From a virus (lineage: Duplodnaviria; Heunggongvirae; Uroviricota; Caudoviricetes): a stretch of DNA of 10,545 nucleotides. The notes below the pieces were generated by a model. That model did no database searches. It saw only the letters and a list, made by a program, of their open reading frames with translations, and was not told the DNA's origin. Position numbers and translations under genes: made by a program. Positions within the stretch are counted from its first letter, which is position 1. Each line of letters opens with the position of its first letter. The DNA is taken from the IMG/VR virus record IMGVR_UViG_2909303794_000003. The stretch is one strand, 5' to 3'. Below, piece after piece: positions 2,323-9,602 of the stretch.

Positions 2323-2356
2323 ACTTGCTTTAGGGGGCTTCCTTAAAGATGCACAG

Positions 2357-2632
2357 ATGAATATTACACTCGTTATCCTGAATCCCTATAACAGTACTGT
2401 ATTGTACTCCATGCTGATGTTCTCAGGATTTGTTGATTACATTCAGGCAGTAGCCGATCCAAATGAAAAAACGAATGAAATGACAGTTTACGTGAATAGC
2501 ATTTATAAGAAGCTGGACAGACAGCCACCACTAATTGCTGCCAATTCAGTATATCAATCTCTCTATAAAGGGGATGAATACTTTAGTTTATTAGGACAGG
2601 TGAATCAGGATCAAACGTGGAGATACAAATGA
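2357..2632 (+). CDS. hypothetical phage protein (91 aa), first gene after IS2; possibly a 5'-truncated remnant
   Basis: Track ORF. ATG 2357 has only a weak SD and lies 35 bp from the IS2 right end. Its stop overlaps the start of the next gene (ATGA at 2629-2632), indicating translational coupling into the tail module. The product has no recognisable motif. Confidence 0.4.
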   Translation: MNITLVILNPYNSTVLYSMLMFSGFVDYIQAVADPNEKTNEMTVYVNSIYKKLDRQPPLIAANSVYQSLYKGDEYFSLLGQVNQDQTWRYK

Positions 2633-3033
2633 TGCATAATGAATTAATTAAGATTATTCAGTACTCAATCGACAATCCCTATAAGTATGGTGATAACGAT
2701 TGCAATTTGATTGTACTCCGCATTATTGACCTATTCACTGGCAGTACCCTTGCAAATCGCCAATATACGAGCATTAAAGAGGGGATAGCAGGTCTTAAAA
2801 AAGAAGGATGGGATCATACAGGTCAAATAGTTGAACAGTACTGTGATGAGGTACAACACTTTATAGACGGAGATATCTGGTTAGATCCCGATAACCCCTT
2901 AATTATGGCAGTGGTTGTATCAGGTCGAGTACTTGGGGTGAATGAAAGCCATGATGGCTTTGAATTACACCCAAAACCAATACAGGGAAGATATTTTAGA
3001 GTAAGGAAACAGAAGGAATGGGGAAAAGTTTAG
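2629..3033 (+). CDS. hypothetical phage tail-module protein (134 aa), possible tail-tip assembly protein
   Basis: Track ORF 2617..3033 starts at a GTG; ATG 2629 is preferred (GGAG at 2618-2621, 7-nt spacer, ATGA overlap with the upstream stop). It contains Cys in GDNDCNLIV and downstream His residues. An NlpC/P60-like assignment, as in lambda gpK, is speculation from position and this weak motif only. Confidence 0.45.
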
Positions 3034-6000
3034 GGGGCTTCTTTGGAGCAATAATTACGGCAGTCATTGTCGCTTTGGCGGTTTACTTCACTGGCGGTAC
3101 GGCATTAGCCGCGATTGGCTGGGGGGCTGCGGCAGGTGCTGCAAGCCTTGTTGCAACAAGTATGCTGGGGCAGATTGGCGTTCAGAGTTATGGGGATGTA
3201 ACGGATTCACTCAGCAGGTCAACGAGTCCTACCACTGGATTACCAGTACTGTATGGTGGGCAACTTCCCCATAAAAATGGGGTATCGGGCGGTTCGTTTA
3301 TTCTCACGGGGAGTATTGTCTCATGGTATAACATCCCAAACAGTGATTCACAGTACTTATTCAGTGAACAGGCAATATGCTACGCGGGAACTGAAAAGAA
3401 TATAAACCAGATTTATATTGATAATGAACCAGTATTAGCCGTTCCGGTCACTCAGGATGGTATTGTACCAAAGGCGAATATTGCCAGTAAGTATCAGGAA
3501 TATCTACAACTTGAAGTACGGTTTGGTGGCGATTATACCAGTACTAAATCTCTTGCAAGCCAATACGCCGGGCCGAAGTGGACAAATAAGTTTCTTGGTA
3601 AAGGCATTGTTTCTGTCAGTGCGGTTATTAAAAAAACACAACAATCATTAGAGCAGAATCTTCTTGTGAATGATCAGTTCACGATGACTGTTGAAATGAA
3701 AGGTCAGAGAATATTAGACCTCGTAACAGGGTCAGTACTGGCGACGTCAAATCCACCATCAATTATCTACGACTATCTGACCAATACAACGTACGGGATT
3801 GGAATTGAACCGGGATTAATTAATCTCGATACCTTCCTTGAAACCGCAGCGTATTGTGACCAGATGGAGTATTACGCTAATGGTTCAATTAGCTATCAAA
3901 GCTCGTACAAGGAAAACATTGAAAATATCTGTCAGGTATTTGGCGGTATTATGTATGTACATGCAGGGCAAATCTGTATTACGACGGATCGTAAAACGCT
4001 TTCGGTTGCATCATTCAATGAAAATAACATGTTTGGTGCAGTACAGATCAGTACCAGCGGCGGCACAGACTACTTCAATACTGTTGATGCGAAGTACACC
4101 AATCCAGCCAGTATGTACACGACTGACGTGTTACGCATTCCTTCCGATATTACGATTGATGAGGCAATTCAGCGTGACGGGCAGGTTATTACCCTAAGCC
4201 GTGATTACTCTTGGTGCTATGACGCTGATGTACTGGCGAAGATGGTCAATGTTGATGTACTCAAGGCTAAGTACGCCTTACGTATTGTATCCTTCACCAC
4301 AAGTGAAGGCTGGGATCTGAAGGTATGGGATGCGATCAACGTCAGCAATACTGAACTGAATATTTCAGGGAAGTTTAAGGTACTGTCAAAAGAAGTGGCA
4401 ACCGATCAGGAGAACGTTGGGTACGTTACAATCACGGCAGTTGAAGCCCCTGATGCAATGTACGATGGCGTAGATCCCGGTATCTGGTCACCTGGCGGTT
4501 CAATCCAGTTTCCCGAACTAAGCGTAAAGGCTCCCACGAACCTACAGGCAGTACGCAAAGGTAACACAACAAACGGCTCCCTTGTCGATCTCACATGGGA
4601 TGCGTCACAAGATCCGTGGCTACGGGGTTATTACATCTACTATAAGTTGAGTAGTTCCGGTACTTGGACGTATGCGGGAAGTACTAATACCCAGAAAACC
4701 GACTTTGAACTATTCGGCCTCTCAGACACTGCGGCTTATGACTTTGGGGTTGAGGCATATAACAATCTCGGCCTTACGAGTAACAGACTAACGTTAACGG
4801 GATTAGTGCCGACATATAACTTTGCATTACCTTCCGTAACTGGTGTCGTACTGGCAAATCGCACCGTGGGGCAATATGAAACTGATTCTGCTGATTTCAA
4901 TATCCGTTGGGATAATCAGAAGAATTTAATCGTTAATGGTCGCTCATTTTCTGATTACTTCAAGTACTACACCATTAATATCTATAACGGTAGTGATTTA
5001 ATCGATACATTCTATACGCAGAGCAATACATTCAACTTTACGCTTGAAATGAACCGACTCAGAGTGCGTAAACCTACTATTGGCATTATTGCTCAGGGAT
5101 TCAACAATGGTACTTATTCACAGGAAGTACGAATTACCGTTGAGAATAAACAATGTGGATTAGTGCAGGGTGTTCAGTTCACTGGCGGGTTTAGCAACTT
5201 ATTCGCCTCATGGACTCCATCGACTGAGAGGGATTATGCCGGGGCAGTAGTGAGTATTGTTAATGGTACGAGTACTAAACTCTACACCAGTAATAAACCT
5301 GAATTTGACAGTATACCCAACATTCCAGATGGAGAATATAAAGTTAAGGTCGGATTCTTTGATGTATTTGGACAGGACAATATTCAGTACTCGGCAGAGC
5401 AGACGGTCAGCATTAACAGCAAATACCAGTTTACGGAAGATGATGCAGAACAGATTAATGGAATACTTGATCTCGATGATCGTCTGAATGAGACAATTGA
5501 AAATGCAGTTAATGAAAGTAATGAATACACCAATACGCAAATCTCTACATTGAAAAACACGGTAGACGGAAACACGGCAAGCATAACAAATCTAAATCAG
5601 ACTGTAGCGGATAATGACACAGCACAATCACAGGCAGTTACACAGCTACGTAGTGATGTGAACGGGCAGATTGCCGCGGTTAACCAGCAGATGAGTACAA
5701 AGGCAACTGCAAGCACTGTAGACAGCCAGTACTCATTGTCCGTCAATGCTAACGGTACTGTAGCGGGTATCCGTCTTGTTGCTTCTCAGGGAACGAGTAA
5801 CAACAGTGCTATCTATTTCGCAGCAGATAAATTTATTGTCAGCGGCAGTAGTGCGGCGACAGTAGGCGGTACGGCTCCATTCTCAATCGTGAATGGTACT
5901 ACCTACATCAAAACATCCATGATTCAGGCGGCAAGTATCGGTACTGGTTACATCGCAGATGCAGCGATCACAAATGCGAAAATTGCCAATGCCAGTATTA

Positions 6001-8432: not shown

Positions 8433-9002
8433 ATGATTAGAGGCAGAATAACAGGGCTGAATAACGCAACAACCTATCTTAATACTACAGGTCAACGTCT
8501 TGGACGTGACTTTCAGAATGAAATAATCAAAAGGTCAAGGGCGTTATCAGCCAAAATGCAAATGGACTTAAACAATGCCGTCGATAAAGGAGCAGTACCT
8601 TTCACTCAGCGTTCCATTCTCTTTATGTACAAGAAAGTTGGTAATGGAGTTCGCAGTACTATTCTCGTGAAGGATCTACAAGCGAAGTACTTATATGACG
8701 TACTTGTTGAGGAAAAAGCCCTTGATAAGTTTGTACCAACGAGTAAGGCACGTCTTGATCGGTTCGGTAACATTGCAGGGTTGAAACGTAATCTATCAAA
8801 TGGGCGTTATAAGGTCATTAAAGGGAAGAATGGTAAAGAGCGATTGATTGATACCAGCCAGAAGAAGAAAGAAAAGCGAGTAATTGGATTACGTGAAAGT
8901 AAGAAACGTAAAATCATTTATGATTTCTATGCAGAAGCAGAGAAGGGGGCAAGACTTGTTCTCGCAGGGATACAGGGATCGTTTGTTATAAAAAAGGGAT
9001 AA
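8433..9002 (+). CDS. hypothetical basic protein (189 aa) with a Lys/Arg-rich C-terminal region
   Basis: SD GAGG 8 nt upstream; start is 3 nt after the previous stop. The C-terminal part (KGKNGKERLIDTSQKKKEKRVIGLRESKKRK) is strongly basic, suggesting nucleic-acid binding. The N-terminal 60 aa loosely resembles the HK97 gp10-like tail-component pattern (RAL...A...AVP...RS); unverified. Confidence 0.5.
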   Translation: MIRGRITGLNNATTYLNTTGQRLGRDFQNEIIKRSRALSAKMQMDLNNAVDKGAVPFTQRSILFMYKKVGNGVRSTILVKDLQAKYLYDVLVEEKALDKFVPTSKARLDRFGNIAGLKRNLSNGRYKVIKGKNGKERLIDTSQKKKEKRVIGLRESKKRKIIYDFYAEAEKGARLVLAGIQGSFVIKKG

Positions 9003-9003
9003 T

Positions 9004-9315
9004 ATGAATTTTGAAGAACACTATGGTGAACTTACGAGTGAGATAACGCTGAATGGTACTATACCAGATGGTAATAGTATGCCAATCAACAAGTGCTTTC
9101 TCGGAAAGAAGTTCCAGAAGCAATTGAAGAAAGCAGATATACAGATTGAGTGCTTTATGAATATCTGCTACGAGAAAAAACAAAGTTTTAAAGATGGTGA
9201 AGTACTCACATGGTCACTACAGGGTGATGAAATGGATGTGTACTTAATCGAAAGTAAAAGGTTATTTGTAAAGGGAAAGCACTTTTGGGGATATTGTGTG
9301 GGGATCATTGAATGA
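9004..9315 (+). CDS. hypothetical protein (103 aa)
   Basis: SD AAGGGA upstream; start is 2 nt after the previous stop; Cys-containing; no recognisable motif. Confidence 0.5.
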   Translation: MNFEEHYGELTSEITLNGTIPDGNSMPINKCFLGKKFQKQLKKADIQIECFMNICYEKKQSFKDGEVLTWSLQGDEMDVYLIESKRLFVKGKHFWGYCVGIIE

Positions 9316-9602
9316 TTGGAATGATAATTGATTTAATCAAAACTGGATTGGGCTTCTTCCAGAAAAAAGAACAAAGCAAACAGGAACTGGACGCACAGAA
9401 CAGTCACGAGCAGAACGAGATCACACTTGAAGAAACACGTAAGGGCTTCACGTGGCGACAGGGTTTAGGCTGGGTACTAACGTTCATCATTCTATGGAAC
9501 TACGTCATTGTGCCAGTACTGGCATTGTGTGGTGTAGTACTTCCCATAGTTCCACTTGATGAAATATGGAAAGTACTGATCATCTTAATCGGTGGGAGTT
9601 GA
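9312..9602 (+). CDS. small membrane protein (96 aa): hydrophilic N-terminal half, two C-terminal hydrophobic segments
   Basis: ATGA start/stop overlap with the previous gene. C-terminal GLGWVLTFIILWNYVIVPVLALCGVVLPIV and IWKVLIILIGG are predicted TM helices. The protein ends immediately after the last helix, unlike a typical holin with a charged C-terminal tail. Its 3' end overlaps the convergent minus-strand ORF by 18 bp. Confidence 0.5.
   Translation: MIGMIIDLIKTGLGFFQKKEQSKQELDAQNSHEQNEITLEETRKGFTWRQGLGWVLTFIILWNYVIVPVLALCGVVLPIVPLDEIWKVLIILIGGS

Follow-up and report, generated by a model that had tools for sequence, protein, structure and literature searches.

Family-wide excess of the palindrome AGTACT and its GTAC core in temperate phage-like elements of Enterobacteriaceae

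Short sequence words that recur throughout a genome have been described in several forms. Chi, the uptake signal and DNA uptake sequences (USS/DUS) and the FtsK-orienting polar sequences (KOPS) are asymmetric, usually strand-oriented words of 8–12 nt that occur about once per 1–5 kb in cellular genomes and have known readers (RecBCD, the competence machinery and FtsK). Cluster A mycobacteriophages carry stoperators, 13-bp asymmetric sites present in about 20–35 copies per genome, oriented with transcription, found for the most part in the short gaps between genes and recognized by a known helix-turn-helix repressor. Ribbon-helix-helix (RHH) dimers insert a β-ribbon into the major groove to read dyad-symmetric words, such as the MetJ met-box AGACGTCT, the omega heptads and the Arc/Mnt operators, which are arranged as tandem or inverted arrays at promoters. 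Vsr/Dcm repair in Escherichia coli skews tetra- and pentanucleotides genome-wide (CCWGG excess, CTAG deficit) without any function of the sites, and restriction-site avoidance removes words. Here we analyze a 10,545-bp stretch of tailed-phage DNA (IMG/VR record IMGVR_UViG_2909303794_000003, hereafter the window), in which the palindrome AGTACT and its GTAC core are strongly over-represented, together with the family to which it belongs, a group of temperate, serine-recombinase-integrating, siphophage-like elements of Enterobacteriaceae.

Enrichment of AGTACT and GTAC in the window

A machine search finds 32 exact copies of AGTACT in the window, five at 475–937 and 27 at 2393–9572. An earlier sequence-only reading had counted about 31 by hand and proposed a roughly tenfold excess; it had missed the site at 2928 and placed those at 475 and 917 at 474 and 918, and with about 2 copies expected the excess is stronger than it had claimed. 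Dinucleotide-preserving shuffles of the window contain 2.2 copies on average and never more than 7 (200 shuffles). Markov expectations were computed on the backbone, taken as 1–1000 plus 2323–9602, and are 2.6 and 2.0 for order-0 and order-1 models, 14.5 for a third-order model and 30.1 for a fourth-order model. The half-sites AGTAC/GTACT number 51.5 versus 7.5 expected, and GTAC 88 versus 28. The fourth-order value implies that the AGTACT count follows from the enrichment of half-sites and of GTAC. The signal is hierarchical, with GTAC first, AGTAC/GTACT second and AGTACT approximately at the level predicted from two independent half-sites. The unit is not the hexamer alone, as had been supposed, but a GTAC core with graded flank preferences.

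The excess also persists when coding constraints are respected. Shuffling synonymous codons within each coding sequence (CDS) leaves 6.6±2.2 copies of AGTACT (maximum 14 in 500 shuffles) versus 29 observed in CDSs. A constrained Markov-chain shuffle, in which synonymous codons were used and the 34 absent palindromes were held absent, gives 5.6±2.1 AGTACT versus 27 observed and 42.5±4.6 GTAC versus 80 observed, which rules out a by-product of purging other palindromes. Neither the recount nor the third-order and codon-preserving controls that had been proposed for the claim reduce it to expectation. The copies are spread over the reading frames of all window CDSs as 9/11/9, and within the tail-tip gene, for which the use of all three codon phases had been noted, as 4/4/2; no codon pair is favored. 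The organization of the window is as follows.

1–991 (no strand assigned): left backbone segment (early region), with AGTACT at 475, 523, 908, 917 and 932
730–882, plus strand: gene for a putative 50-aa RHH protein, a conserved early-region gene whose product may be the motif reader
908–937: three AGTACT in 30 bp (908, 917, 932), closely following the RHH gene and preceding the gene interrupted by IS2
992–2322, plus strand: IS2 insertion, 1331 bp, GC 53%, with terminal inverted repeats and an IS3-family transposase annotation
2323–9602: late-region backbone, comprising a truncated tail gene, J, lysis genes, the GIY-YIG gene and three unknown genes
3018–6221, plus strand: tail-tip (J-like) protein gene, with 10 AGTACT (frames 0/1/2 as above) and 38 GTAC
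7978–8430, plus strand: gene for a 150-aa minimal GIY-YIG (SegE-like) nuclease (PF19835, E=1.7e-15), with 2 AGTACT inside
9603–10545, minus strand: variable AT-rich cassette, GC 32%, between the late genes and a methyltransferase gene

The late-region backbone contains 27 AGTACT, 80 GTAC, 0 CTAG and 0 GCGC. Its AGTACT copies start at 2393, 2660, 2837, 2928, 3245, 3352, 3540, 3734, 4680, 4963, 5271, 5386, 5728, 6060, 6329, 6402, 6749, 7069, 7779, 8096, 8234, 8655, 8686, 9201, 9515, 9536 and 9572. The three early-region sites at 908–937 are spaced 9 and 15 bp apart, a cluster common only to the closest relatives (L096 and L097) and not family-wide.

Two segments of the window carry no AGTACT, as had been pointed out. 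IS2 has 0 versus 5.1 expected at backbone density (P=0.006), with 3 GTAC versus 14 expected, and is a motif-free recent arrival. The 943-bp right end (9603–10545) likewise has 0 versus 3.6 expected, with 3 GTAC versus 10; at P=0.026 its lack of the motif is only marginal and statistically weak.

The window is identical to positions 2155846–2166390 of E. coli 14EC007 (NZ_CP024131.1), where it forms part of a remnant prophage of about 16 kb located between yeaG and mipA. This island consists, in order, of a large serine recombinase gene, an IS3-family element, early-region fragments, IS2, the truncated tail gene, the J-like tail-tip gene, lysis genes, the 150-aa GIY-YIG nuclease gene, three unknown genes, the variable cassette, a small methyltransferase gene and a DUF2188 gene. 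Within a 47-kb locus, 40 of the 42 AGTACT copies lie inside the island, four of them in the recombinase gene and two in the methyltransferase gene, and 2 lie in the 31 kb of flanking chromosome. The feature is thus not confined to 2323–9602, as first described, but extends over the entire island and, as shown below, over a whole phage family. Megablast searches of phage and plasmid collections returned no nucleotide match to the window. On one side of IS2, an early gene starting at 956 is broken by the insertion (956–991); the other side (2357–2632) adjoins a C-terminal tail-protein fragment that covers profile positions 272–361 of 390 of PHROG 2048. It follows that a deletion associated with IS2 took about 20 kb, with the genes for packaging, the head and most of the tail, and that what remains in E. 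coli is a dead remnant.

The phage family and the imprint of the motif

Protein-guided searches of IMG/VR and of bacterial genomes recovered about 90 related loci; family statistics refer to 80 loci (978 kb in total, some of it shared by overlapping loci). Hosts are Enterobacter, Buttiauxella, Pseudescherichia, Mangrovibacter, Scandinavium, Kluyvera, Phytobacter, Pseudocitrobacter and Pantoea, and the methyltransferase cluster occurs further in Klebsiella, Citrobacter freundii (hundreds of contigs), Salmonella, Yersinia and Edwardsiella. GTAC is raised in all 80 loci (median observed/expected 2.64, range 1.52–3.76), and AGTACT reaches a median of 7.2-fold and exceeds 3-fold in 74 of the 80, so that the repetition on relatives suggested by the sequence-only reading bears the excess out. 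At prophage/host junctions the prophage side has a GC content of 36–40%, 2.3–3.8-fold GTAC and no GCGC, versus 52–57%, 0.5–0.8-fold and 1.5–2-fold on the host side. Long-resident family DNA carries about 10 GTAC and about 4 AGTACT per kb, or one per 100–260 bp; per kb, host DNA has 5-fold fewer GTAC and roughly 60-fold fewer AGTACT than phage DNA.

A complete relative of 34,195 bp, phageA, was assembled from three loci. It contains 127 AGTACT and 335 GTAC, evenly spread, and a cassette encoding a KAP-family P-loop NTPase (30786–32081) has neither. The proposed use of the motif as a marker of native backbone is borne out: IS2, the cassette at 9603–10283 and the KAP-NTPase cassette of the relative all lack AGTACT. 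In the window, the minus strand of 9585–10283 encodes a 232-aa membrane-like protein, and the KAP NTPase occupies the same slot in phageA. This slot, flanked by the late genes and the methyltransferase gene, holds AT-rich, motif-free cargo that differs between members and appears to be a hotspot at which accessory or defense genes are acquired.

The early region (locus L046/phageA 1–9300) contains recognizable genes for the serine recombinase, the RHH-like protein, a 469-aa P-loop protein and endonucleases of the HNH and GIY-YIG types; no CI/Cro-type repressor, replication initiator, polymerase or primase was recognized there. Among 50,697 GenBank phage records there is no close relative of the family. 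By TerL and J, the nearest cultured phage is DCP80, at 30–35% amino acid identity, and it has no GTAC excess. In the DCP80 record (L048, PQ671644.1, 1–50000) the first 26 kb form a siphovirus-like structural module related to the family, joined to T4-like genes, and 50 kb contain no GATC, with about 45 expected per 12–13 kb segment. The record could be a chimeric assembly or an unusual mosaic.

The pressure acts on DNA and not on codons or proteins. In phageA, AGTACT is realized at 59% of the positions where the amino acid sequence permits it, with nearly identical values in the three frames (0.59, 0.62 and 0.57), versus 0.06–0.09 for control hexamers. Inside CDSs lie 120 of the 127 sites, in all frames, and 1855 nt of non-coding DNA hold 8, the same density as in coding DNA. 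The equality of all frames and of non-coding DNA shows that the enrichment is at the DNA level and is no codon-pair effect; together with the three kinds of shuffle it rules out a codon-pair or amino acid artefact. The pressure nevertheless leaves an imprint on the proteome. Ser-Thr is the most over-represented dipeptide of phageA (111 versus 65.5), with 65 of the 111 encoded by AGT-ACT, one of 24 possible codon pairs, and Val-Leu is also raised (81 versus 58). Several aligned columns show AGT-ACT in some lineages and TCA-ACN in others, a pattern compatible with lineages having switched independently from one family of serine codons to the other. Host-type codon usage is overridden and amino acid composition is shifted.

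These data bear on one alternative, a compositional by-product of codon usage, amino acid content, low GC or the removal of other palindromes. The genomes are AT-rich, AGT, ACT and GTA are frequent codons, and many other palindromes are forbidden, which speaks in its favor. Yet every kind of shuffle yields 2–7 sites against the 27–32 observed, which refutes the explanation. Non-coding DNA and all frames are equally dense, AT-rich cassettes in the same element lack the motif, and the codon bias, as seen in the Ser-Thr pairs, is a consequence of the motif. We regard a by-product as very improbable.

A symmetrized logo of the sites shows the GTAC core, A/T at ±1 (58%), C/G at ±2 (35–42% versus 19% background) and a weak T/A at ±5 (about 50% versus 31%), with nothing further standing out. 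Information falls off outward from the 2-fold axis, as for a dimeric binder. A longer repeat or mini-element was ruled out, the logo being nearly free of information beyond ±2. Site spacing is Poisson (coefficient of variation 0.95–1.07) except that pairs less than 20 bp apart are deficient (12 versus 30 for AGTACT), as expected from a footprint or from diminishing returns. Apart from this deficit and the 3-bp coding periodicity, there is no regular or helical-phase spacing and no clustering of sites. On the plus strand GTACT and AGTAC number 61 and 46 in the window and 178 and 211 in phageA, and thus show no consistent asymmetry.

Individual sites are conserved about twofold better than control words, which points to purifying selection, and also turn over. 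At 66% nucleotide identity, GTAC is retained with a frequency of 0.46 versus 0.22 for tetramers of the same composition, and AGTACT with 0.39 versus 0.15 for control words; more than half of the sites are lineage-specific at this distance.

The excess might also arise from a non-adaptive molecular drive, in which Vsr-like repair, gene conversion or a context-biased mutator would convert near-cognate sequence into GTAC or AGTACT. As in biased gene conversion, the effect per site is weak and uniform over frames and non-coding DNA, and all resident DNA is affected regardless of function. Transition neighbors are slightly depleted (GTAT/ATAC 0.86, GCAC/GTGC 0.88), and AGTACT frequently alternates with AATATT in the same alignment columns. 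The family also encodes the conserved minimal GIY-YIG nuclease. Its gene is fixed in position, with the lysozyme gene on one side and unknown late genes on the other, in 52 of the 54 loci covering it, and behaves as a core gene, unlike a roaming homing endonuclease; the protein is possibly a sequence-specific enzyme of the family, and nothing ties it to GTAC. Against a drive, no single neighbor is depleted enough to account for the 220 excess GTAC, and hexamers one step away are themselves enriched (GGTACT 3.8-fold, TGTACT 2.7-fold, AGCACT 1.8-fold). Scans with Pfam, PHROG and NCBIfam placed no vsr, dcm or deaminase gene among the annotated genes. The switch from TCN to AGY serine codons needs multiple changes through non-synonymous intermediates, and the shift in amino acid usage means that the pressure must beat selection at the protein level. 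CpG-to-TpA or GC-context deamination (GCGC to GTAC) was rejected separately, as the dinucleotides GC, GT and AC each stand at 1.0 and neither the numbers nor the coding constraints agree with it. Three possibilities had originally been raised, namely a sequence-specific binder, a modification site and an unusual mutational bias; the last is in our judgment unlikely, and selection for a recognized site is favored.

The excess occurs in genomes from which other palindromes have been removed, in line with the contrast to palindrome avoidance that had been remarked at first. In the window backbone CTAG is found 0 times versus 33 expected, GCGC 0 versus 15, and 32 of the 64 palindromic hexamers are absent; individual family genomes are without 25 to 32 of the 64, and 72 of the 80 loci contain no GCGC at all. 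Other words differ by lineage: CTAG is at 0 in the window and about half of its relatives and normal in others (for example, L010 and L013), and TGCA, normal in the window, is down to a single copy in 33 kb of phageA. Complete site elimination is reported to be typical mainly of non-temperate phages and not of temperate ones (PMC6286503), so that the present integrated element stands out in this regard too. The hosts are GCGC-rich, and the family-wide avoidance of GCGC therefore suggests a phage-intrinsic cause which, speculatively, could be a nuclease of the phage itself. Among T4-like phages, the 50–100 kb part of RB49 (L044) lacks 27 of the 64 palindromic hexamers in 50 kb, AGTACT among them.

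Lineages also differ in their treatment of AGTACT itself. L010 has no AGTACT versus about 14 expected from a half-site model and 5.9 from composition, and it keeps 85 copies of AGTAC[ACG] and a 2.2-fold excess of GTAC. L038 resembles it, with 4 AGTACT sites and the excess of AGTAC[ACG] and GTAC retained, and L060 is poor in AGTACT too. The simplest reading is that a ScaI/Eco255I-type restriction activity in the hosts of these two lineages would make the perfect hexamer lethal while near-cognate sites stay useful, and this pattern fits a function that tolerates near-cognate sites. Conversely, L055 and L061 are enriched in AGTACT (20 versus 3.5 and 11 versus 3.4) with no general excess of GTAC, which indicates that the hexamer is favored in its own right.

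Candidate readers and the role of the site

The explanation we tentatively prefer is positive selection for a recognition site read by a dimeric factor that the family encodes and that marks phage DNA. AGTACT would be the optimal form of a short dyad-symmetric site with a GTAC core, and weak but pervasive selection would hold the density of sites high across all long-resident DNA. We infer that the reader is a sequence-specific dimeric protein of the family, possibly the conserved RHH-like protein, which may mark or coat phage DNA by way of the dense sites and set it apart from motif-poor host DNA. The purpose might be genome-wide silencing of a prophage with no obvious repressor, or self-recognition during lytic growth. 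That the dense GTAC/AGTACT sites form a genome-wide identity tag, read by a phage-encoded dimeric protein to silence, protect or select phage DNA, is a more doubtful extension of this idea. Equally conjectural is the thought that such a tag would mirror restriction-site avoidance, with self and non-self distinguished by sequence composition, the host being motif-poor and GCGC-rich.

The RHH-like protein is the only recognizable sequence-specific DNA binder so far and is a candidate reader, a natural one given that RHH dimers read short dyad-symmetric words. An AlphaFold2 model of its 50 residues (mean predicted local distance difference test score, pLDDT, 82) has an extended N-terminus followed by two helices, a strand-helix-helix layout. 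Its top fold matches are ParD, MazE and NikR, with template modeling (TM) scores of 0.5–0.68, none statistically significant for so small a protein (best E 0.6), and the Pfam RHH_1 profile matches the orthologues below its cut-off (E=0.004–0.13). Orthologues are found in all 31 early regions retrieved (viral contigs) by a search pattern that was the motif of the RHH protein itself.

Several observations weigh against this explanation, and in particular against its candidate reader. Around the RHH gene, GTAC is not concentrated in 28 loci (22 versus 45 expected upstream, 36 versus 34 downstream), and the residues of the predicted β-strand show no clean covariation with motif usage. RHH repressors normally need tandem sub-sites, and the AGTACT sites here are isolated. 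The reader is a candidate only. A rough odds-ratio estimate of 2Ns is about 3 per site, assuming a neutral usage of about 5%, and indicates only weak selection; at so weak an effect per site, biased repair or conversion could mimic selection. To our knowledge, there is also no known system in which a 4–6-bp palindrome at such density serves as a self-tag.

An enzymatic reader has been considered as well. In this alternative, GTAC/AGTACT would be the target of the conserved amino-methyltransferase of the NPPF type, and dense methylated sites would be selected for epigenetic marking or protection. The gene starts 46 bp past the right end of the window (L001 28269–28979), lies at the same position in every locus reaching that end and is itself motif-rich, hence a long-term resident. 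Its 236-aa product carries motif I and the NPPF motif, and its AlphaFold2 model (pLDDT 86, with database homologues as input) resembles N6-adenine methyltransferase cores, with METTL5, PH1948, the M.TaqI catalytic domain, a Type I M subunit and CamA among the nearest folds. The same model, however, consists of a bare Rossmann core, lacks a separate target-recognition domain and is equally similar to rRNA m6A methyltransferases. Homologues with 44–57% identity occur in many T4-like phages, among them RB49, RB16, RB43, KP15, Aeromonas phage 65 and Sinorhizobium phiM12, and in RB49 the gene lies among baseplate genes; such homologues are frequent in T4-like phages whose DNA is unmodified.

Carriage of the methyltransferase is not accompanied by the motif elsewhere. 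RB49, whose homologue is 56% identical, has no excess (GTAC 105 versus 135 expected, AGTACT 0 versus 15.9), nor does vB_KsaM-C1, a carrier of the same methyltransferase family (GTAC 243 versus 190), and the DNA surrounding 17 distant bacterial homologues has ordinary GTAC counts. KpnI is blocked by GGTm6ACC. Family-wide, GGTACC is nearly absent, with 15 copies in 978 kb versus roughly 8 expected per 20-kb locus from half-site frequencies, and L038 has purged AGTACT with its methyltransferase gene intact. Avoidance of both words in methyltransferase-bearing lineages speaks against protection of GTAC sites by adenine methylation. Moreover, carriage of a methyltransferase gives no recognized reason for enriching its target word. 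We therefore disfavor the methyltransferase as the reader, and hold a methylation target to be somewhat less probable than a drive.

Finally, a conserved Enterobacteriaceae host factor, such as a nucleoid protein or the nucleoid-occlusion factor SlmA, could be recruited or titrated by the phage. AGTACT is the center of the SlmA-binding sequence GTGAGTACTCAC, the same motif is kept across many infected genera, and the lack of recognized classical repressor and replication genes in the early region suggests heavy reliance on the host. SlmA itself was rejected, since its site is a 12-bp palindrome with GTG/CAC flanks and the flanks of the 127 + 32 sites match it no better than random sequence (the modal match is 1 of 6 positions, and two of the 127 reach at least 4), and the preferred flanks here are C/G where the SlmA site has G/C. 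DCP80, which also infects E. coli and has no GTAC excess, and the host genomes, which themselves under-represent GTAC and AGTACT, speak against a host factor as well; we consider it improbable. In the order in which we rank the explanations, selection for a recognition site comes first, followed by drive, the methyltransferase target, a host factor and, last, a compositional by-product.

Comparison with known systems

No description of AGTACT or GTAC over-representation in phages was found in the open-access literature. A 7–15-fold gain of a palindrome that recodes serine codons and raises Ser-Thr content is the opposite of the usual loss of such words in phages, is without an established explanation and occurs in a genome that has lost dozens of other palindromes. 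This widespread, uncultured family is common among bacteria of clinical relevance (Citrobacter freundii, Klebsiella, Enterobacter, Salmonella and E. coli). If the sites are a self-tag, they would represent a novel means by which a mobile element marks its own DNA; if they result from drive, the conversion bias would be unusually strong and sequence-specific. Whichever holds, the motif can serve in practice to find these prophages, delimit them and date their acquisitions of cargo.

One related phenomenon is restriction-site avoidance, of which the family shows an extreme form, with TGCA, CTAG and AGTACT each purged in particular lineages. The AGTACT and GTAC excess has the opposite sign, at 7–15-fold and 2–4-fold, and avoidance gives no reason for an excess. 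The skew left by Vsr/Dcm repair is likewise genome-wide, but it combines a modest excess with a marked deficit of T-containing neighbors and depends on a vsr/m5C-methyltransferase gene pair, whereas in the family the excess is far larger and the neighbors are not drained.

Chi, USS/DUS and KOPS resemble the family word as short words dispersed through coding and non-coding DNA under weak selection or drive, with an imprint on codons and peptides. They differ in that the word here is a 4–6-bp palindrome, present once per 100–260 bp and in one phage family only. Chi-like hotspots are asymmetric 5–8-nt words, strand-biased relative to replication or DNA ends and identical to what the host RecBCD/AddAB enzyme recognizes. 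Chi was specifically rejected, the motif being palindromic with no strand bias and the enterobacterial Chi GCTGGTGG occurring once in 33 kb. A DNA uptake sequence was also rejected, as those are 9–12 nt long, occur about once per kb and belong to competent bacteria, while the present word is 4–6 nt and confined to a prophage.

Stoperators are also similar, being phage-specific sites spread genome-wide, away from a single operator, and thought to silence the prophage globally. In place of their few oriented intergenic sites, however, the family has more than 100 palindromic 6-mers inside genes in all frames, and only a candidate for their reader. RHH operators share the dyad symmetry of the word; the family encodes a conserved RHH-like protein, and in the window three AGTACT copies follow its gene. 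Unlike the known promoter arrays, no conserved GTAC array lies near the family RHH gene. The AGTACT/GTAC excess has the defining features of none of these systems, and we classify it with the genome-wide over-represented functional oligomers, as a different form.

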